Notes: generated by a model not told the origin, from the letters alone. Shown: positions 17,939 to 24,803, counted from the stretch's first letter. The stretch: 64,000 nucleotides of DNA from Clostridia bacterium (GCA_017516315.1 JAFXDE010000054.1:15251-79250); one strand, 5' to 3'. Made by a program: numbers and translations.

Positions 17939-18059
17939 GTCGTATTTCATAGCTATTTGTCGAAAAAAACTTTATAAAAATTCTAAAATACCATTGTTTT
18001 ATTGTTAAAAATGTTATATAATAGCTCTTATAATATCAAATTGATTGGAGGGTTCAGAA

Positions 18060-18305
18060 ATGAGCGACAAAACAATACAATTCAAACTTACGGTGGGTAC
18101 TCCCGAGGAAATGAAGGAAGTTATGAACACGGTTTATTCTGCTCTCAAGGAAAAAGGCTATAACCCCATCAACCAGCTTGTCGGCTATATTCTTTCCGAG
18201 GACCCGACTTATATCACTACACACAATAACGCCCGCAGTCTTATCAGAAGAATAGACAGGGACGAACTTTTACAGGAGCTTTTGAAAAATTATCTCAAAG
18301 GCTGA
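18060..18305 (+). CDS. ireB: IreB family regulatory phosphoprotein (UPF0297)
   Basis: [38 protein letters not shown] is the family signature. ATG 18060 follows GGAGG. Confidence 0.8.
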
Positions 18306-18321
18306 TTTCAGGAGGTAAAAA

Positions 18322-18615
18322 ATGGCAGCTAAAAAGAAAAACGAATTTCTCACATATAAAGACAAACCCCTCGTAAGAAAGGGAAATACTCTTTACTACG
18401 GAAATATGAGTGACAAGTTTGTAGTTATGTTTCAGATTTTAAGCACAAAGGATGTTGACGGTCTGGCAGTGGCCGATAAGGTTTCCGTTCAGCTTATCAA
18501 TACTGACCCCGACGTAAGACCTCACGACAGAATCGCACAAAAGACAGAAAAGAAAGGTCTTTACGCCGCTATGGATATCGGCAGAATCTGGCTTGAAAGA
18601 GCTCTCGCCGAATAA
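18322..18615 (+). CDS. hypothetical protein (97 aa)
   Basis: RBS CAGGAGG, starts 16 nt after the ireB stop, and is followed by a terminator. No motif recognised. Confidence 0.55.
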   Translation: MAAKKKNEFLTYKDKPLVRKGNTLYYGNMSDKFVVMFQILSTKDVDGLAVADKVSVQLINTDPDVRPHDRIAQKTEKKGLYAAMDIGRIWLERALAE

Positions 18616-18664: not shown

Positions 18665-18741
18665 CCGCACGTGGCGCAGCCGGATAACGCAGCAGATTCC
18701 GATTCTGAAGAACGGGGGTTCGAATCCCTTCGTGCGGGCCA
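18665..18741 (+). tRNA. tRNA-Arg (anticodon CCG), CCA encoded
   Basis: Manual cloverleaf of 77 nt: acceptor CCGCACG/CGTGCGG; D arm GCGC-AGCCGGATA-ACGC; anticodon arm GCAGA-TTCCGAT-TCTGA; T arm GGGGG-TTCGAAT-CCCTT; discriminator G plus CCA. Confidence 0.9.
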
Positions 18742-18749
18742 AAAAATCC
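18723..18749 (+). repeat. direct repeat copy 1 (tRNA 3' end, att-like core)
   Basis: AATCCCTTCGTGCGGGCCAAAAAATCC, identical to 21422-21448. Confidence 0.95.
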
Positions 18750-18777
18750 GACAAGTTTCGACTTGTCGGATTTTTTT
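18742..18777 (+). terminator. rho-independent terminator after the tRNA
   Basis: 10-bp stem ATCCGACAAG / CTTGTCGGAT followed by TTTTTTT. Confidence 0.8.
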
Positions 18778-18780
18778 ATC

Positions 18781-18985
18781 CAAGCCGACAGGCTTGGTAT
18801 ATCATCACGCGTCAGCGTGTATATCACCAACACGGCATAGCCGTGTTGTATCTCATCACACCTTCAGGTGTGTATATCTGTCGGCTTGATGATATGCAAA
18901 GCTTCGCATTGATGATATACAACTTCTTGCGAAGTTGATGATATGCAATTCCTTTGGAATTGATGATATACAAGGCTTCGCCTTG
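18781..18985. repeat. hairpin array 1: eight short hairpins with unique stems, separated by TATATCA (x4) then inverted TGATATA (x4) spacers
   Basis: Hairpins: 18781-96, 18806-19, 18828-48, 18857-72, 18897-911 (imperfect), 18920-37, 18946-62, 18971-85. Spacers: TATATCA-like at 18798, 18820, 18849, 18873; TGATAT(A/G) at 18890, 18913, 18939, 18964. Confidence 0.85.
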
Positions 18986-19149
18986 ATTTGATTTTCAAAC
19001 ATTCACCAACACGATTCTAATTTATGCTTTTTAATAGAGAAGTAAGCCAAAAATATACAAGGTAATTCTGAGAAAACACTTGATTGTTCTATATTGAAAA
19101 TATGATCTTTTGTAATCTGTTTTTTATGTTTATAAAACAATAAAAAGCA

Positions 19150-19178
19150 TTGACATTAAAATTAATTTTTGTTAATAT
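19150..19178 (+). promoter_or_regulatory. sigma-70-type promoter of the surface protein gene
   Basis: TTGACA (19150-55), 17-nt spacer, TAATAT (19173-78). Confidence 0.5.
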
Positions 19179-19233
19179 TTTCTTAGAGTGGAAACAATCC
19201 CTCTGAAAAACACATTATGAAAGGATGAGAAAA

Positions 19234-21186
19234 ATGAAAAAAATTATGGTAATTGTTTTGTCGGTGCTTATGGCGTTTTCTGTTATGCCTATGGCGTTTG
19301 CTCAGGATGCACATAACTGTGTTGATGCAGATAACTGCCTTGTTTGCTATATTGCAGAGCTCATCAATTCTCTGCCGGAAGCAAAGGACATTTCTGCAGA
19401 AAACGCAGCAGAGGTTACTGATACCATTCATGCAGTAGACTGCGTGAAATTTGAACTGACTGACGAAGAATATGATGAACTTCTCAGTCTTGTTGCTGCA
19501 GCTGAAAATAGCAATGGCGGTTTGCCTGTGCCTAAGGCATATATGGAAGCTCTGAATGCTATTGTTAATCTGGATGACGGCTGTTCATTCCATATTTCAA
19601 AGGATGTATTATTAAAGGGAGAAGATATCTATGATCTCAGTGAAGCCTATGTTGCTTTTGAGATTACGGGAGAAAACGGCTACTGTTCAACTCTCACTCT
19701 CAGAGATGCTGTTCAGGGCGTTTTTACTCTTGACGAATCGCAGGTTGCTTCCGTGGACTTCTTTACCGCTACTCTTGCAAGCTTCGAGGGATATTACACT
19801 ATGGATAAGCAGGGCTGGACTTATTCATACACACTTCCTGCAGGTACATATACCATTAAAGAGGTTACCGATTCAATGATAATCAACGGTACAGAATACA
19901 CAGACGCTACTGTTTCATTCAACGGTGAGTCTGCTGAAAGCTATACCTTCATATTAAAAGAAGGTGAGGATGTTTCTCTGCTTATCGGAAACTATTACGA
20001 CGGAGAAATAAACATCTGGTATGAAGCAAACGGCGGTGAAGGTGAAATGTATCCTGATATCGCTACCAGATATAACGAATTCACTCTCTCACCCAATGCC
20101 TTTACAAAAACCGGCTATGTTTTCAAGGGCTGGAGCGATGATATAGGCAATTCTTATGATGATGGTGGCACATATTACTTTGATAATTCTACAACTTTAT
20201 TTGCTCAGTGGGAAGAATGTACCGAGCACATCTGGAGCGACGGCACTTGCTCAAAATGCGGCACAGAATGCTCTCACGACACAATGACATCTGAAATTAC
20301 CGCACGTCCCGAAAGCAGTGATGGCATAAGCTGGTCAAAGGGTGAAAAGACCTATACCTGCACCTGCGGATATAGCTACGCTCAGGAAGCTGACCGTGCA
20401 GATTATTCCGAATATATCAAGGCAGCTTTAGAGTTTGCAGAACTCGCTTCCACAGAAGGTCTTACAGATACAGCTAAAATAAGCATAGCGGCTGACTATG
20501 CCGATCTTGGAGAGCTTGCACAGAATCTCATTACAGACGAGCAGAAAATCGTTGACGATTATGTTGCCGGCTTAAAGGCTCTTATTGAAAAGATTAAAGC
20601 AGGTATAGCGGACGGATCTTATCTTAAGGCTGACTATACAGAGCTTGAAGTAGCTATTGATGAGCTTGAAAAAGTTCTTGCTGAAAACGAAGCTCTTCTT
20701 ACCGAAAAGGCTGTACAGGAGCTTAAGGATGCTATTGCCGATGCTGAAAGCACCGACAAAAACCTTACAAAGAGTGCTCAGGATACAGCGATCCTCGATG
20801 CTGCCGTAAAGGCTGCCAAGGATGCCGCTGTGCTTGATGATAGTGATTTCAGAGTTGACACCACTGAAGCAGAAAAGCTTATTGTCGAGCTTGAAGAAAA
20901 AGAGATAGCCGATGAAGCTCTTAAAGCTGAAATTGAAAATATCAAGGCTGAAATTGAAAAAATCAAGGCCGACAAAAATGCTTCCAAGGCTGAATACGAT
21001 GAGGTTGTTGGTGGATATGTCAACCGACTTCAGGAAATCAAGAGCGTGATTAATAATGAAGATGAGTTCCGTTGCGGAATGTGTGACACTTATGAAAAGA
21101 ATGCAGACACACCTGTTATCGGCATTATCATGAAGATTATTCATTTCTTTGTTCACTTTGCTCAGCTTATCTCTTTCAAATCATAA
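19234..21186 (+). CDS. secreted surface protein with InlB B-repeat-like module, Cys-rich segments, helical repeats and a C-terminal hydrophobic tail
   Basis: Signal peptide MKKIMVIVLSVLMAFSVMPMAFA. The YEANGGEGEM...GYVFKGWSDD...LFAQWEE module looks like a Listeria-Bacteroides repeat. Several CxxC pairs and a long acidic helical region with KAEIENIKAEIEKIKAD repeats. The terminal VIGIIMKIIHFFVHFAQLISF is hydrophobic, and there is no LPXTG. Confidence 0.7.
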   Translation: MKKIMVIVLSVLMAFSVMPMAFAQDAHNCVDADNCLVCYIAELINSLPEAKDISAENAAEVTDTIHAVDCVKFELTDEEYDELLSLVAAAENSNGGLPVPKAYMEALNAIVNLDDGCSFHISKDVLLKGEDIYDLSEAYVAFEITGENGYCSTLTLRDAVQGVFTLDESQVASVDFFTATLASFEGYYTMDKQGWTYSYTLPAGTYTIKEVTDSMIINGTEYTDATVSFNGESAESYTFILKEGEDVSLLIGNYYDGEINIWYEANGGEGEMYPDIATRYNEFTLSPNAFTKTGYVFKGWSDDIGNSYDDGGTYYFDNSTTLFAQWEECTEHIWSDGTCSKCGTECSHDTMTSEITARPESSDGISWSKGEKTYTCTCGYSYAQEADRADYSEYIKAALEFAELASTEGLTDTAKISIAADYADLGELAQNLITDEQKIVDDYVAGLKALIEKIKAGIADGSYLKADYTELEVAIDELEKVLAENEALLTEKAVQELKDAIADAESTDKNLTKSAQDTAILDAAVKAAKDAAVLDDSDFRVDTTEAEKLIVELEEKEIADEALKAEIENIKAEIEKIKADKNASKAEYDEVVGGYVNRLQEIKSVINNEDEFRCGMCDTYEKNADTPVIGIIMKIIHFFVHFAQLISFKS

Positions 21187-21262
21187 CATAAGAATGACAG
21201 AACAATTCAAGATGTGAACAGTGCTATATCTTGTTGCCAAATTGACCTGTAAACACAAAAAA

Positions 21263-21298
21263 ATATAACGGTGCCGATAGGTGCCGTTATGTTTTTTT
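21263..21298 (+). terminator. rho-independent terminator
   Basis: Stem ATAACGG / CCGTTAT with a 12-nt loop and TTTTTTT. Confidence 0.65.
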
Positions 21299-21310
21299 AG
21301 ATACAATCAA

Positions 21311-21440
21311 CCGAAGGGATTTGAACAAGGAGGGAGCGAAGCGGAAGAAAACAGTCCGGTGGACTGTTTTCGCCGACATGGCAACGAGCTTGCGAGGCGA
21401 TAGTGCGGTAGCACGGGACAAAATCCCTTCGTGCGGGCCA
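21311..21440 (+). other. structured noncoding segment ending in a tRNA-Arg 3' fragment (pseudo-tRNA / att arm)
   Basis: CGAAGGGATTT (21312-22) is the exact inverted complement of AAATCCCTTCG (21421-31). An 11-bp hairpin lies at 21347-21371. Weak, mostly transition-type similarity to the tRNA body lies upstream of the exact repeat. The segment cannot fold as a cloverleaf. Confidence 0.5.
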
Positions 21441-21448
21441 AAAAATCC
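21422..21448 (+). repeat. direct repeat copy 2 (tRNA 3' end, att-like core)
   Basis: Identical 27-mer to 18723-18749. Confidence 0.95.
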
Positions 21449-21471
21449 AAGTCTTCGGACTTGGATTTTTT
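21441..21471 (+). terminator. rho-independent terminator (diverged paralogue of 18742-18777)
   Basis: 9-bp stem ATCCAAGTC / GACTTGGAT, TTCG loop, TTTTTT. Confidence 0.75.
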
Positions 21472-21472
21472 C

Positions 21473-21640
21473 AGTTATGTCCGCAGAACATAACTTCAGT
21501 CAGCGGCATTTATGACGCTGACTTCATTACGGCCTTTAGCCGTACTTCATTTGTCGGACATAAACGAATGAAGTTACCTTACGGTAAATGAGTGCTGTCG
21601 CAATAAAGTGGCTTTGCCAATGAAATGTGCCTACGGTACA
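21473..21640. repeat. hairpin array 2: same architecture as array 1, with ACTTCA (x3) then inverted TGAAGT-like (x3) spacers
   Basis: Hairpins: 21473-95, 21498-523, 21528-44, 21575-86, 21609-19, 21626-40. ACTTCA at 21493, 21521, 21544. TGAAGT/TGAGT/TGAAAT at 21569, 21589, 21621. The central 8-bp stem ACTTCATT/AATGAAGT encloses 21552-66. Confidence 0.8.
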
Positions 21641-21811: not shown

Positions 21812-21841
21812 TTGACAGAATATTGCATTTCATTGTATAAT
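21812..21841 (+). promoter_or_regulatory. near-consensus sigma-70 promoter of the sigma factor cassette
   Basis: TTGACA (21812-17), 18-nt spacer, TATAAT (21836-41). The ORF-track start at 21812 is the TTG of the -35 box. Confidence 0.65.
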
Positions 21842-21886
21842 TACGGAAATTATTATATTCTCAATGAAAAGAGGCGGGGATATACA

Positions 21887-22435
21887 TTGGAAATAAAAGG
21901 AAGTTCAAAACATGAATTATGTAAGCGCTTATGGCTTGAAAACGAACCGAAGATAAGAAGACTGTGTGAATATAAATTAAGCAGTCATCCTGACGAGGCA
22001 GAAGATATTATAGCAGAAACAGCATTGATTCTCTGGACGGCTATCTTTGAAGATACACCGATAAAATATCCTAACTCCTGGATATATGCCGTAGCCGGTA
22101 ATCTTATCAAGAAAAAGTACACAGAGCTTAAAATTTCGAAGGAGCGCAAAATCCCCTTTGACGATAAAGACCCTGAAATGCACGAATTGGCTGTCGGCTA
22201 TGATTATGACAGTCGGTTAGTGCCCGATGATCTCATAGAAAGATTTTCCGTACACGCAGAGCCTTTATTGAAGGACGATGAAAAACAGCTTTATCAGTAT
22301 GTTTATGAAGATAAGCTGAAAATGAAGGAAATAGCGGTTTTAATGTCTTCTACGGAATCGGCGGTAAAGCAGAGAAATTACCGACTTACGAGAACGCTGA
22401 AAAGACTGATTAAAGAATTTTTAGAAAATTTATAA
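21887..22435 (+). CDS. sigma-70 family (ECF-like) RNA polymerase sigma factor
   Basis: Region 2 (DEAEDIIAETALILW...NSWIYAVAGNLIKKKY) and region 4 HTH (MKEIAVLMSSTESAVKQRNYRLTRTLKRL). TTG 21887 lies 7 nt after GAGGCGGGG and downstream of the promoter. Confidence 0.75.
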   Translation: MEIKGSSKHELCKRLWLENEPKIRRLCEYKLSSHPDEAEDIIAETALILWTAIFEDTPIKYPNSWIYAVAGNLIKKKYTELKISKERKIPFDDKDPEMHELAVGYDYDSRLVPDDLIERFSVHAEPLLKDDEKQLYQYVYEDKLKMKEIAVLMSSTESAVKQRNYRLTRTLKRLIKEFLENL

Positions 22436-22492
22436 AAAATTTGTGTTACTTTTTATGTGCTTTTATAACTAACTCTATGAAGGAGGTATAAA

Positions 22493-23269
22493 ATGAATAG
22501 CGGTGCTTTAAAAGAAATTTTAAAAGTTGAGTTTTTGAGCTTTACCAAAGAAGAGATAGAAAACATTATGGATGAAGAGCTTGAAAAATCTCCCGAAGAG
22601 ATGGACACAGAGCTTATTGAAATGTGTCTTGACATTCTGACGGGAAAGCCGAAAGAAAAGGCAGATGAAGTGTTAACTGATTCACCTGCAGTGTCAGATA
22701 AAACAGTTAAAAAAATAAAATTCAAGAAAGGAATATTAGTCGCTGCAATTATCGCGCTTTTTATAACTGTTTCTGTTCCTGTCGGCGCCAAAATCTTTGA
22801 TATCAATGTTCCGGAAAGTATACTTAAGATTTACGAAGAGTATTTTCAGCTTAATCTTGATGGCGAAACTCAGAGTGAAGATTTAGATACTATTTTAGCT
22901 TGCTACGATTTAGATAGTCTTATTTTGCCGAGATTTTTGTTTTTAGATTGTAAAATAAGTGAATTTGAAAAAGTGATTGATGAATATAAAACTCAAATTA
23001 GTTTTAAGTATGTTTCGAAAGAGCAAAAAATGAGTGGAGATGTTATATTAAATATATTCAAACAAAATATGAACTTTTTAGATCGTGAAATGAAGGTTAA
23101 CGACCAATACGAAGAAGCTAAAAGAATTACGGTGAATGGAATTAATGTAATCGTCTTTAAAAAAGGCAGAGAAGTTTATATATTGTATTCAGTTACTGGA
23201 ACAGAATACAATATTATGTTATATGGTGTTACTATAGATGAAGCTGTTGAGATTGCAAGCACTTTATAA
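22493..23269 (+). CDS. single-pass membrane protein, putative anti-sigma factor (DUF4367-like C-terminal domain)
   Basis: RBS GAAGGAGG. Acidic cytoplasmic N-terminus, TM helix ILVAAIIALFITVSVPVGA, and an extracytoplasmic domain ending ...VNGINVIVFKKGREVYILYSV. The call rests on position directly after the sigma gene. Confidence 0.55.
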   Translation: MNSGALKEILKVEFLSFTKEEIENIMDEELEKSPEEMDTELIEMCLDILTGKPKEKADEVLTDSPAVSDKTVKKIKFKKGILVAAIIALFITVSVPVGAKIFDINVPESILKIYEEYFQLNLDGETQSEDLDTILACYDLDSLILPRFLFLDCKISEFEKVIDEYKTQISFKYVSKEQKMSGDVILNIFKQNMNFLDREMKVNDQYEEAKRITVNGINVIVFKKGREVYILYSVTGTEYNIMLYGVTIDEAVEIASTL

Positions 23270-23280
23270 ATATAATTATT

Positions 23281-23781
23281 ATGAAAAGGTTTCTTAAAAT
23301 TGCGTTAGTTGTTGTTTTATGTATTGCTTCATTGTTTCCTATGAAATCTTTTGCTATTGACGGCGAAAAAGTACAGTGGTATAACATTGACTTTCCCGAA
23401 AGTGAGATTCAGAGGATATTAGGGTTAAATCCTCAGGATGAAGCATCAACGAGGGCATCAGATTTAATTGTTTCATATAATGTTGGCATAGCTAAGGATG
23501 GTTCTACAATAAAATTAGTTGCGAAGATGGTTTGTGATGGTGATGTCGTAAAATGCGGCTTTAAAAAAATACTCATACAAAAAAGAGCAACAACAAGTTC
23601 TTCGTGGTCAACATGTCTCACTTTAGAAGATCTTTATTATAATGGTTATGCTCATTCAATCGGGAGAATTATTTCAGTGCCTTACGGTTATCAGTACCGC
23701 GCTGTATGTACCTTCTATGCTAAGAAAAGCCTTCTGGTAACACAGAAAATTGAATTGGCTTCTAATATAGTTACTATTTAA
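23281..23781 (+). CDS. secreted hypothetical protein (166 aa)
   Basis: Signal peptide ending SFA-ID. Very AT-rich coding sequence. No motif recognised. Confidence 0.5.
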   Translation: MKRFLKIALVVVLCIASLFPMKSFAIDGEKVQWYNIDFPESEIQRILGLNPQDEASTRASDLIVSYNVGIAKDGSTIKLVAKMVCDGDVVKCGFKKILIQKRATTSSSWSTCLTLEDLYYNGYAHSIGRIISVPYGYQYRAVCTFYAKKSLLVTQKIELASNIVTI

Positions 23782-23796
23782 ATAAGCACTATTATT

Positions 23797-23834
23797 AAGC
23801 TCACCGAAACTTTAAGGCTTCGGTGAGCTTTTCT
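23797..23834 (+). terminator. rho-independent terminator
   Basis: 12-bp stem AAGCTCACCGAA / TTCGGTGAGCTT followed by a T-run. Confidence 0.8.
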
Positions 23835-23933: not shown

Positions 23934-24803
23934 TTATTCTGTTTCACAGCCCTTATCCACAGAGGAGCAGAGATAGACCTCGTCAAAGCTTTTCTTTAAT
24001 TCAGCGAGGCATTTTTCCGCATCCTCTCTTTTTTCGAAAATGCCGAAAACACTGGGGCCGCTTCCACTCATACAGCAGCATTCACAGCCGTGCTTTCTCA
24101 TAATGCTTTTGATAACCACTCTGTCGGGTACATCGATGAACTGCTCGAAAACATTGTCAACTCTGTCGAAAATACCTTTTTTATCCCGGGTAGCCGCGGC
24201 GATAAGCATACCCCTCGTATCGAGATGTCTTACTCTCTCAGCCTTGTCGAAGGCCGCATAAGCCTCACCCGTGGAAACATCCTGCTTCGGCTTTACGATT
24301 ACGATGTTTTCCGCTTCGAGGTCGGGGAGGAAGGAAAGCACCGTACCTGTATACTGAGCCGCCATAGTACCGCCCATAATGCAGAAGGGGATGTCGGCGC
24401 CGATTTTACCGCCTGTCTGTGCCATTTCCTTGAGTGAAAGCCTTGTACCGAAAAGCTCATTGAGCGCGACAAGAGTAGCCGCACCGTCAGCACTTCCTCC
24501 TGCAAGACCTGCCGCCTGAGGGATATTCTTTTCGATGTGGACGGAGATACCCGTATTTTTAACACCGGTGTCAGCGAAAAATTTCGTGGCTACCTTGTGA
24601 ACGATGTTACTTTCGTCAGTAGGAACACCTTCTTTGTTACAGGTGATTTCGATGTCCTCACTGTCTGTCTTGCTTACGGTGACACGGTCATAAATTCCCA
24701 CGGACTGCATAATCATAAAAAGGTCGTGGTAGCCGTTGGGCAGAGTAGATAATATGTCAAGCATAAGATTGATTTTTGCGTAGGCTTTAGCGGTAACTTT
24801 CAT
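23934..24803 (-). CDS. ispE: 4-(cytidine 5'-diphospho)-2-C-methyl-D-erythritol kinase
   Basis: AKINLMLDI N-terminus and GHMP kinase motif IPQAAGLAGGSADGAA. Confidence 0.9.
   Translation of the reverse strand: MKVTAKAYAKINLMLDILSTLPNGYHDLFMIMQSVGIYDRVTVSKTDSEDIEITCNKEGVPTDESNIVHKVATKFFADTGVKNTGISVHIEKNIPQAAGLAGGSADGAATLVALNELFGTRLSLKEMAQTGGKIGADIPFCIMGGTMAAQYTGTVLSFLPDLEAENIVIVKPKQDVSTGEAYAAFDKAERVRHLDTRGMLIAAATRDKKGIFDRVDNVFEQFIDVPDRVVIKSIMRKHGCECCCMSGSGPSVFGIFEKREDAEKCLAELKKSFDEVYLCSSVDKGCETE

Follow-up and report, generated by a model that had tools for sequence, protein, structure and literature searches.

The 3' ends of tRNA genes are classic landing sites of genomic islands and prophages, and a tRNA-end repeat found without an integrase is, as a rule of thumb, put down to decay. 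Among the described systems, CIMEs are kilobase-sized deletion derivatives of a recognizable ICE or IME that use the same att site. Units bounded by shared ends and gathered at one anchor are known from integrons (to our knowledge, none has been reported in Firmicutes, the group to which our host belongs) and from SCC-type elements (SCCmec and pseudo-SCC), which are moved at the 3' end of rlmH by CcrAB, large serine recombinases. The locus described here runs counter to the decay rule, as its tRNA-end repeat belongs to a very common, uniform, structured element of 185 nt and its cargo to a second family of self-contained cassettes, lined up behind tRNA genes and moving between species.

In the window (the whole stretch of 64,000 nt, from a Clostridia bacterium), the sequence AATCCCTTCGTGCGGGCCAAAAAATCC occurs exactly twice, first at the 3' end of a tRNA-Arg(CCG) gene (coordinates of all features in Table 1), and no further copy with up to three mismatches was found elsewhere in it. 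None of 100 shuffles of the window gave even two near-matches, which places the repeat far beyond chance. The whole 2.06-Mb assembly contains only these two copies. Given the boundaries of the tRNA (18665-18741), the repeat consists of its last 19 nt (T-loop position 58 to the CCA) plus 8 nt, AAAAATCC, which open a terminator stem at both sites according to inverted repeats and folds. The earlier note had described the exact 27-nt direct repeat, its make-up (19 nt of tRNA, here from ARAGORN, and 8 nt of terminator stem) and its attL/attR character; all three were borne out, the repeat being an attL/attR-like duplication at the tRNA 3' end. Upstream of the tRNA lie genes for an IreB-like protein, a small protein without Pfam match and a polyferredoxin.

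None of the ORFs from 18750 to ispE matched a recombinase family in Pfam; they encode a 650-aa protein with a Flg_new (Listeria-Bacteroides) repeat, a sigma-70-like factor and two proteins without Pfam match. Genome-wide searches placed no tyrosine (PF00589) or serine (PF00239) recombinase on the 106-kb contig that carries the window (C7) and no Y1 transposase (PF01797) in the whole assembly. The claim that no recombinase is encoded in the bracketed 2.7 kb, or on to ispE, was therefore confirmed. The accompanying description of this interval as one cargo gene plus hairpin-rich noncoding DNA needs to be changed. The interval is made of at least two units of different families, and the surface-protein gene lies in the first of them (18742-21256).

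Table 1. Features of the tRNA-Arg(CCG) locus (positions counted from the first letter of the window)
Feature	Position	Strand	Evidence
tRNA-Arg(CCG), locus anchor	18665-18741	+	ARAGORN; Rfam tRNA, 53 bits
Repeat copy 1: tRNA positions 58-76 (AATCC...CCA) plus AAAAATCC	18723-18749	+	Exact match
Bidirectional terminator hairpin opening the first cassette	18741-18776	+	16-bp perfect inverted repeat I4; fold
Type A mirror-image hairpin array	18781-18985	+	Fold z = -10.5; copies in own genome and relatives
Promoter-like site: TTGACA, 17 nt, TAATAT, with TG	19150-19178	+	Consensus scan, 10/12 matches
Cargo gene, 650-aa secreted or surface protein	19234-21186	+	Pfam PF09479, E = 6.6e-9; translation
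Cassette end motif TTGTTGCCAAATTGACCTGTAAACAC, 26 nt	21231-21256	+	Motif family; homology to the G050 cassette stops here
B part 1, bidirectional terminator hairpin	21257-21298	+	Fold; comparison with relatives
B part 2, inverted tRNA T-arm copy CCGAAGGGATTTGAAC	21311-21326	+	Inverted repeat I10 with 18718-18732
B part 3, conserved core	21327-21421	+	Alignments; covariation
Repeat copy 2: 3' end of B (19 nt, same as tRNA end) plus first 8 nt of the next terminator	21422-21448	+	
Terminator hairpin opening the next unit	21440-21471	+	Inverted repeat I11; fold; collinear with the sequence beside the tRNA in G002 and G011
Type C mirror-image hairpin array, linkers ACTTCAT then ATGAAGT	21473-21640	+	Fold z = -6.4
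Second cassette: promoter, sigma-70-like factor, two ORFs without Pfam match	21812-23830	+	Pfam; promoter 12/12

The second copy of the repeat is the last part of a structured noncoding element of about 185 nt, which we call B (21257-21440). The repeat exists because B always terminates in a copy of the 3' end of its host tRNA, and its extra 8 nt are identical because the terminators opening the first cassette and the third unit both begin with AAAAATCC. The hairpin at the start of B serves here as the terminator of the surface-protein gene and, where B abuts the tRNA, as that of the tRNA itself. The inverted copy spans the T-loop and the 3' strand of the T-stem and extends into the first part of the acceptor stem; it varies with the host tRNA across the family. 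In the core of about 95 nt, AAGGAGGGAG is followed by P1 (GCGAAGC, 21336-21342), the P2 hairpin (21347-21371), GCCGAC..GGCGATAG, the P4 hairpin (21403-21414) and GGGACAA. Compensatory changes were found in 12 of the 28 pairs. The covariation score was reached by none of 500 shuffles and collapsed in slid controls, and 97.6% of cells were paired, compared to 88.9% in shuffles. Loops are often GNA triloops closed by C-G, GCGAAGC among them, a feature typical of mini-hairpins of great stability in DNA more than in RNA. Only the tRNA passed the gathering threshold of Rfam 15, and a permissive scan gave nothing credible for B. A small ORF in B behind a Shine-Dalgarno-like AAGGAGG was rejected, with no conserved start codon or frame and with variation there that compensates stems. 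An origin as a MITE or an IS200/IS605-derived palindromic element was likewise discarded, given the lack of a Y1 transposase and ends that are target copies and not fixed ends.

In Acutalibacteraceae and related gut Clostridia, B-type elements immediately follow a wide range of tRNA genes. Within the genus they occur in 49 of 61 genomes, and more than 120 contigs of GTDB representatives of other species also have them; the hosts include tRNA-Arg(CCG, ACG, TCT), tRNA-Ser(GGA, CGA), tRNA-Gln and tRNA-Ala, among others. In nearly all of 92 nonredundant copies the repeat corresponds to tRNA positions 58 to 76, with a period of 181 to 200 nt. Each B carries an exact 19-nt copy of the end of its host tRNA (T-loop to CCA) and an inverted copy of the T-arm, following the tRNA allele resident in each genome; the cores differ by 5 to 20%, yet the second repeat copy matches perfectly in almost every case. 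B invariably shares the strand of its tRNA and has a terminator of its own behind it, and tandem copies occur. In about 90 other copies B alone separates the tRNA from the tRNA-end copy, so that the repeat comes with B and not with the surface-protein cassette. Many truncated copies break just past the start of the core. About a dozen of these run into unrelated genes and were considered as full-length B elements with cargo inside the core, a candidate that was dropped when no matching right end or repeat appeared within 3 to 8 kb. Searches of IMG/VR and of phage and plasmid collections gave no matches to B on phages, plasmids or viral contigs, and full-text searches of the literature gave no description of such elements; B and the cassette each apparently represent a large, undescribed family in gut Clostridia.

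No recombinase could be tied to B, and none adjoins any of the roughly 150 copies examined. When the tyrosine-recombinase coordinates listed for the 61 genomes were cross-matched against those of B, the few neighbors turned out to lie on classical islands, with repeats of 45 nt, that had entered upstream of an older B. An integrase-bearing element having 19-nt repeats of the T-loop type, or arms like those of B, was not found in the 61 genomes, in IMG/VR or in the phage and plasmid collections.

The surface-protein cassette in front of B is a separate, self-expressed unit composed of a hairpin array, a promoter, a gene and an end motif. The linkers of its type A array change halfway from TATATCATCA to TGATGATATA, and these arrays form a dispersed family, found mostly behind tRNA genes and at very high depth in metagenome contigs. 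The array has a weak, minus-strand match to the Gut-1 RNA (Rfam RF01706, an orphan motif from gut metagenomes) at 20 bits against a gathering threshold of 50 (E = 1.3), so that membership is not established; the match concerns the array and not B or the repeat. The 650-aa protein, also present on three other assemblies, combines a signal peptide, the Flg_new repeat and a coiled-coil region with a hydrophobic tail at its C terminus. The family of the end motif extends to 35 of the 61 genomes, often in rows behind tRNA genes, and the reversed control gave 0 matches. In a distant species (G050), the same cassette is found at another locus, between A-type arrays, with a protein 90% identical in amino acids; its nucleotide identity reaches 88.8%, compared to only about 68% for the flanks of G050 at the tRNA locus. 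In a 99% identical strain, the cassette is followed by an A-type array in place of B. Recurrence of the same cassettes in different arrays was seen between G058 and G063 as well as between the window and G050, and the surface-protein type occurs elsewhere without any tRNA-end repeat.

The unit to the right of the repeat looks like a further cassette. Copies of its type C array are present in the same genome behind tRNA-Gln and near tRNA-Ala, and another genome (G051) has the same set of three genes after its B and tRNA-end copy. A possible, worn end motif (23767-23792), the resemblance of which was judged by eye, and a terminator (23797-23830) lie at its far end, where it abuts the convergent ispE gene. 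Three-gene serine-recombinase elements in two relatives (G074 and G062) close with the same end motif as the cassettes; the link between cassettes and serine recombinases consists of these two co-localizations of the 26-nt motif, and no such element was seen in the assembly of the window (82% complete).

Comparison among relatives revealed several states of the locus. Two genomes (G002 and G011) are collinear with the joined flanks of the window and pass from the tRNA straight into the sequence after 21448, providing the empty site that the earlier note had proposed to look for. The difference between G007 and G012 is B plus one repeat, the tRNA locus of G050 has the order tRNA, B, repeat and C array, with B as the only insert, and G049 and G074 carry other cargo in the same frame. 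Accretion is seen directly in integrase-bearing islands that sit between a tRNA and an older B, and in tandem copies of B. Neither an excised circle nor an empty site within the species came to light in the Logan contigs, which are short and break at the repeats; the sole informative junction among them is that of the strain with an A-type array after the cassette. An insertion had been said to be refuted if the second copy were part of a conserved element inherited by all relatives, with no polymorphism at the locus. The second copy is indeed part of a conserved structured element in many relatives, yet insertion polymorphism at the locus is clear for both B and the cassette.

We consider it probable that the locus was built by stepwise accretion of small, recombinase-less units at the 3' end of tRNA-Arg, with recombinases acting in trans. 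The stack comprises the surface-protein cassette as unit 1 (18742-21256), B as unit 2 (21257-21440) and the sigma-factor cassette as unit 3. In the order that we infer, the tRNA would at first have led directly into the C array, as it does in G002 and G011. B would then have been inserted by recombination within the T-loop-to-CCA segment, supplying a new end to the tRNA and displacing the old one outward, which would give the arrangement of G050. The cassette would have been placed last, between the CCA of the tRNA and the terminator of B, or might have been swapped in via recombination in flanking repeats. There is no third tRNA-end copy between the cassette and B, and the cassette therefore did not enter by the reaction of B that generates the repeat. 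Of the explanations listed in the earlier note, dependence on an enzyme encoded elsewhere, as in CIMEs, and tandem accretion fit best, the sigma-factor unit being cassette-like too. The enzymes of both families would act in trans; the serine recombinases of the large three-gene elements that share the end motif are candidates for the cassettes. Because B combines inverted and direct target copies able to pair around a conserved fold, its architecture suggests that it may be recognized as a folded strand, like the attC sites of integrons or the attachment site of CTX phage. More tentatively, it is possible that Acutalibacteraceae and their neighbors possess an undescribed, tRNA-anchored platform for gene capture. 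Promoter-bearing cassettes, delimited by a terminator, a mirror-image array and the 26-nt end motif, would be captured and shuffled in trans, with large serine recombinases on bigger elements as the probable enzymes. B, for its part, would be a mobile module in its own right, minimal and without genes, able to switch between tRNA targets through a folded single-strand attachment site.

B might instead function chiefly as a structured RNA, attached to tRNA genes and read through or cotranscribed with them, and not as a mobile element, the 2.7 kb then being an ordinary cassette acquired via homologous recombination between repeated flanks; we regard this as rather unlikely. The closing helix formed by the inverted and direct copies would, together with the 3' NCCA tail, resemble the acceptor/T-arm minihelix of a tRNA. 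It could serve as a substrate in processing, as a decoy or in regulation, the tRNA-end copy being kept identical by selection or gene conversion. The strong compensatory variation in the helices agrees with such a role, as do the direct and inverted copies that follow changes in the tRNA allele, the constant strand and trailing terminator, and the ratio of G-U pairs to A-C mismatches on the + strand (about 15 to 6). The near-perfect second copy despite the divergence of the core, together with the tRNA-tracking inverted copy, could reflect selection on a working RNA and not recent insertion. In one Lachnospiraceae contig (L053), B lies between two tRNA genes that no terminator separates, and must therefore be transcribed there. 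Pieces of the family also appear in metatranscriptome contigs, although at low depth, without strand information and with DNA carry-over possible. However, most copies begin behind a strong terminator, with no conserved promoter seen, and the precise presence or absence bounded by the repeat, the tandem copies, the frequent breaks soon after the core start, the DNA-like triloops and the absence of an Rfam family match all argue against a role chiefly as RNA.

A remnant of one classical tRNA-integrating island or prophage, from which the integrase and most genes were deleted to leave attL, a cargo gene and attR, would likewise combine a direct repeat of the end of the tRNA with foreign cargo and a missing integrase. 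Moreover, the same genome has an 8.9-kb island with a 463-aa integrase at tRNA-Thr(CGT) and integrase-less inserts of 1.1 to 1.4 kb at tRNA-Val and tRNA-Thr(GGT). This origin is nevertheless improbable, as classical islands here and in relatives use repeats of 45 to 48 nt from the anticodon stem-loop, compared to 19 nt from the T-loop. In addition, the sequence beside the second copy belongs to a family of uniform size with no integrase link in the approximately 90 copies examined, and the left part is a cassette type found elsewhere without the repeat. The decayed island among the earlier proposals fits poorly; in the integrase-bearing islands of the genus, the repeats are 45 nt long and begin in the anticodon loop. 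In a metagenome-assembled genome of 57 contigs, with flanking modules that are highly repeated in the source metagenomes, the repeat might be suspected to be fortuitous or to be an artefact of collapsed or misjoined repeats. Either origin is very hard to reconcile with the shuffles, with an independent metagenome contig 100% identical to 18675-21377 (tRNA, array, gene and start of B), with contigs from other runs that cover the B/repeat/terminator junction and with the same junction types in dozens of other genomes, and we consider it highly improbable. Further analogies were dropped: an IS91-type insertion, which agrees with neither the target nor the ends; a retroelement-like primer-binding site with polypurine tract, since the inverted copy corresponds to positions 53-67 of the tRNA and leaves out its 3' terminus; and a bridge-RNA-like guide, since the matching segments are far longer than the guides of bridge RNAs and no IS110-type gene was seen beside the copies inspected.

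If accretion in trans is the right reading, abundant but uncultured gut and rumen Clostridia would be swapping surface proteins, sigma-factor modules, redox genes and other functions by a cassette system missed by current mobile-element finders. B would then be a compact natural attachment site with its specificity in two short target copies, so that the rules of its retargeting would be open to direct testing. Annotation is affected as well: contigs of short-read assemblies end at these modules, which thus fragment them, and a tRNA-end copy may be taken for a piece of a tRNA gene or for the scar of an att site.

Compared to known systems, the locus shares the tRNA 3' direct repeat with classical tRNA-integrated islands but has no internal integrase, and its att type differs from that of the lineage. 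It also has the attL/attR-like flanks without recombination and transfer genes that define CIMEs. B resembles CIMEs and the tandem accretion of ICEs and IMEs in its att-like repeats of the target 3' end, the lack of integration, excision and transfer genes, the tandem stacking and an enzyme presumably encoded elsewhere. Unlike CIMEs, it is about 185 nt and uniform in size, with a compensatory fold, an inverted target copy and no parent element or integrase found. As in integrons, including integrase-less CALIN arrays, the rows behind tRNA genes are made of small, co-oriented, mostly single-gene units exchanged between genomes at one anchor, with entry seemingly at that fixed point, and a structured, imperfectly palindromic module, better kept in structure than in sequence, bounds the unit. 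Unlike integrons, there is no IntI-type tyrosine recombinase on the contig, no attI and no R or L boxes (the boundaries are a terminator, a hairpin array and the 26-nt end motif, a layout different from the R''-L''...L'-R' of attC), the anchor is a tRNA gene, and the cassettes bring their own promoters and terminators. In SCC-type elements, as here, recombinase-less and recombinase-bearing members share ends and pile up behind the 3' end of a conserved gene, with adjacent serine-recombinase genes on the autonomous element; the target here is a tRNA gene and not rlmH, the motif and arrays are unrelated to the SCC site, and the tie to a recombinase is the co-occurrence of the 26-nt motif only. 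Finally, B differs from the CTX phage site, on which XerCD acts at dif, in its tRNA T-arm target and in having no filamentous phage or single-stranded replicon. In a purely architectural likeness, both have two target-like copies in opposite orientation about 100 nt apart, whose pairing can rebuild a target-like duplex with a mismatch on one side of the presumed exchange point, on an element without a recombinase of its own.

The 27-mer AATCCCTTCGTGCGGGCCAAAAAATCC is present in two exact copies; given where tRNA-Arg(CCG) lies, it is therefore composed of tRNA positions 58 to 76 plus 8 nt, and in both copies these 8 nt open a terminator stem. No near-match was found elsewhere in the window or in 100 shuffles, and the whole assembly (2.06 Mb, 57 contigs) holds just these two copies. 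Between them lie a hairpin-rich stretch, a promoter-like site and one gene. No recombinase was found among the ORFs up to ispE, nor any tyrosine or serine recombinase on the entire 106-kb contig, and an independent assembly from another sample was 100% identical to the window across 18675-21377. The earlier description of an exact tRNA-end repeat with no recombinase between its copies stands on the match, the shuffles, the ORF survey and this second assembly. One of the explanations then offered, a single decayed island with the repeat as its pair of ends, fared less well (a 2.7-kb circular form would have the junction ...GGGACAA + AATCCCTTCGTGCGGGCCA + AAAAAATCCGACAAG...). The preferred reading is that the repeat marks B, a structured noncoding element ending in the second copy, and that a separate gene cassette has lodged between B and the tRNA.

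Features of the locus and of related elements (unprefixed positions, window; C, contig of the same genome, or of a relative where a G-number precedes it)
Feature	Position	Remark
Two small genes upstream of the tRNA	18045-18615	IreB-like protein; 97-aa protein without Pfam match
tRNA-Arg(CCG)	18665-18741	
27-mer copies	18723-18749; 21422-21448	
Terminator stems opened by the 27-mer copies	18741-18776; 21440-21471	
Surface-protein cassette	18742-21256	
Type A hairpin array	18781-18985	
Promoter-like site	19150-19178	between repeat copies
650-aa secreted protein gene	19234-21186	Flg_new repeat
Cassette end motif	21231-21256	26 nt, TTGTTGCCAAATTGACCTGTAAACAC; closes the cassette
B	21257-21440	ends in second 27-mer copy
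Type C hairpin array	21473-21640	
Sigma-factor cassette end	23767-23830	
ispE	23934-24803	minus strand, convergent with sigma-factor cassette
Other end motifs, same genome	C51:798-823; C10:74521-74546	TTGTTGCNAWWTTRASCTGTAAACAC, given for these copies and that of the window
Divergent B-type element	C16:18035-18290	168 nt, behind tRNA-Ser(CGA)
Family of ~314 nt	C4:1-450; C2:48900-49516	tandem copies behind tRNA-Ser(GCT)
Classical island	C45:20732-29685	8.9 kb, at tRNA-Thr(CGT)
Integrase-less insert, tRNA-Val(GAC)	C7:82507-83706	1.1 kb; 45-48-nt tRNA repeats; 3 kb past window end
Integrase-less insert, tRNA-Thr(GGT)	C11:18346-19799	1.36 kb; 45-48-nt tRNA repeats
Large element L199	G074:C10:11001-31000	
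Large element L200	G062:C82:129501-149500	

The tRNA-to-ispE interval was hypervariable among relatives. The empty site, proposed earlier as a check, is present in G002 and G011, where tRNA-Arg(CCG) is followed by the C-type terminator and array, collinear with the joined flanks of the window. The loci of G012 and G007 are identical save for exactly B and one repeat. Behind the same tRNA, B and the repeat precede a C array in G050, an A array in G071, G072, G067 and G070, and the sigma-factor cassette in G051. The frame of the window with other cargo was found in G049 (A array, promoter, two small genes, end motif, B and repeat) and in G074, which carries thioredoxin, rhodanese and CoA-disulfide-reductase-like genes; the G074 repeat is worn and corresponds to a different tRNA allele. 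Upstream of the tRNA, the IreB-like and 97-aa proteins reach 100% identity between species although the DNA of the locus differs by 7-15%, which places the left flank in strongly conserved core genome.

When compared with 40 relatives, the noncoding pieces of the window proved to be dispersed repeats. B (~190 nt) recurs directly behind various tRNA genes, including Arg(CCG), Arg(ACG), Arg(TCT), Ser(GGA), Ser(CGA), Gln(TTG) and Ala(GGC), and all copies are built alike, with a bidirectional terminator, then the T-loop, T-stem 3' strand and first acceptor bases of the host tRNA as an inverted copy, a conserved core and an exact 19-nt copy of the host tRNA end. Among 92 nonredundant copies, the repeat nearly always ran from AATCC to CCA, with a repeat-to-repeat spacing of 181-200 nt. 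The family was found in 49 of the 61 genomes of the genus and on more than 120 contigs of species representatives (labeled Acutalibacteraceae, Oscillospiraceae, "Ruminococcus sp. CAG:488/563" and "Eubacterium sp."), and it was absent from IMG/VR and from phage and plasmid collections. Both the direct and the inverted copy track the resident tRNA allele (..CGAGC.. in G014, ..CTCTGGGC.. in G019). The terminator and the two copies are host specific; the cores do not group by host tRNA, an Arg-linked core (G072) being 97% identical to a Ser-linked one (G015), which suggests that cores are exchanged between loci or that B retargets.

Some related arrangements were also seen. The divergent B-type element of the same genome, in which the duplicated segment includes the terminator, went undetected by BLAST with the B of the window. 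In a Lachnospiraceae MAG contig (L053, JAZOAJ010000409.1), B is flanked by two tRNA genes and no terminator intervenes, so that there it must belong to a polycistronic tRNA transcript. Every copy of the ~314-nt family, which is distinct from B, terminates with the last 20 nt of tRNA-Ser(GCT), and a sub-module of this family is also inserted within a B element of G014.

For B, 30 diverse copies were aligned and yielded a consensus structure of 28 pairs, with a closing helix between inverted and direct copies, an 11-bp hairpin (P2) clamped by CGG/CCG and a further hairpin (P4). Two-sided changes affect 12 of the pairs, paired cells amount to 97.6% (88.9% in shuffles), and the covariation score of 0.291 (0.124 in shuffles) was reached by none of 500 shuffles; shifting the pairing partners by 1-3 columns lowered pairing to 39-52%. 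The main rival reading takes B for a working RNA with a tRNA-like end. Metatranscriptome contigs include pieces of the B family, at low depth and with no strand information, and no Rfam family matches B. The variable hairpin P1 and a mini-hairpin often carry GCGAAGC or other GNA triloops closed by C-G, and d(GCGAAGC) forms a DNA hairpin of unusual stability; these hairpins hint that B may function as single-stranded DNA.

The surface-protein cassette consists of a terminator with a type A array, a promoter, the gene and the end motif. The end-motif family was found in 35 of the 61 genomes, with 0 matches for a reversed control, and its members often stand in rows directly behind tRNA genes, at spacings of 0.2-4 kb, each unit holding one or two co-oriented ORFs. 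Some of the same cassettes turn up again within different arrays (e.g., G058 and G063). A complete surface-protein gene was present in only one other genome of 60 (G050, 90% amino acid identity), in a cassette 88.8% identical in nucleotides to window positions 19050-21260 that sits on a different contig between A-type arrays; the flanks of the G050 tRNA-Arg locus are only ~68% identical. In a strain with a 99% identical gene, the cassette is followed by an A-type array in place of B. Both placements indicate that the cassette moves as a unit ending at the motif. Just ahead of ispE, the sigma-factor cassette closes with what looks like a worn end motif (ATAGTTACTATTTAAATAAGCAC) and then a terminator. 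The arrays are mirror-image series of small hairpins with unrelated stems. Between the hairpins stands a conserved linker word, replaced by its complement from the center onward, so that linker pairing can produce a rod bearing the hairpins on its sides. Array copies lie mostly behind tRNA genes, and their depth in metagenome contigs is roughly 7-100x that of unique DNA.

Classical islands of this lineage encode a tyrosine integrase of ~460 aa and have 45-nt repeats from the anticodon loop. At tRNAs that also have B, these islands lie between the tRNA and B, which is direct evidence of accretion at the tRNA end. The island at tRNA-Thr(CGT) (463-aa tyrosine integrase, 45-nt direct repeat from the anticodon loop) provides an internal contrast to the repeat of the window. 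Of the two integrase-less inserts, that at tRNA-Thr(GGT) has one lipoprotein-like gene; inspection of the sequence by eye suggests that the one at tRNA-Val(GAC) has a single unidentified gene, encoded on the opposite strand. No recombinase adjoined any B copy examined, and the assembly contains no Y1 transposase. The end motif, followed by a terminator as in the small cassettes, also closes two large elements with three consecutive serine-recombinase genes (L199 and L200), which have in common a module encoding a 165-aa protein, a ~200-aa protein, a 515-525-aa serine recombinase, a ~300-aa protein and a 540-553-aa serine recombinase. Because the motif is common to both kinds of element, these two co-localizations point to the enzymes as candidate agents of cassette movement in trans.

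B itself may arise by recombination inside the T-loop-to-CCA segment, with incoming DNA bringing a new tRNA end, which would yield exactly the layout seen. Its inverted copy is fully complementary to target sequence on either side of the repeat's left border (GTTCG/AATCC...), and diverged sequence (GGGACAA) lies to the left of its direct copy; on folding, the strand would therefore restore the target duplex with one side mismatched. No description of such elements turned up in full-text searches. We rate the locus as fitting known recombinase-less, att-flanked elements and cassette accretion at tRNA genes, and the underlying system has a substantial chance of being new in kind. The proposed action in trans on the cassettes can be likened to that of CcrAB, which moves recombinase-less SCC elements. 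The CTX phage attachment site has the layout proposed for folded B, a target duplex with a one-sided mismatch; attC sites share it more loosely.
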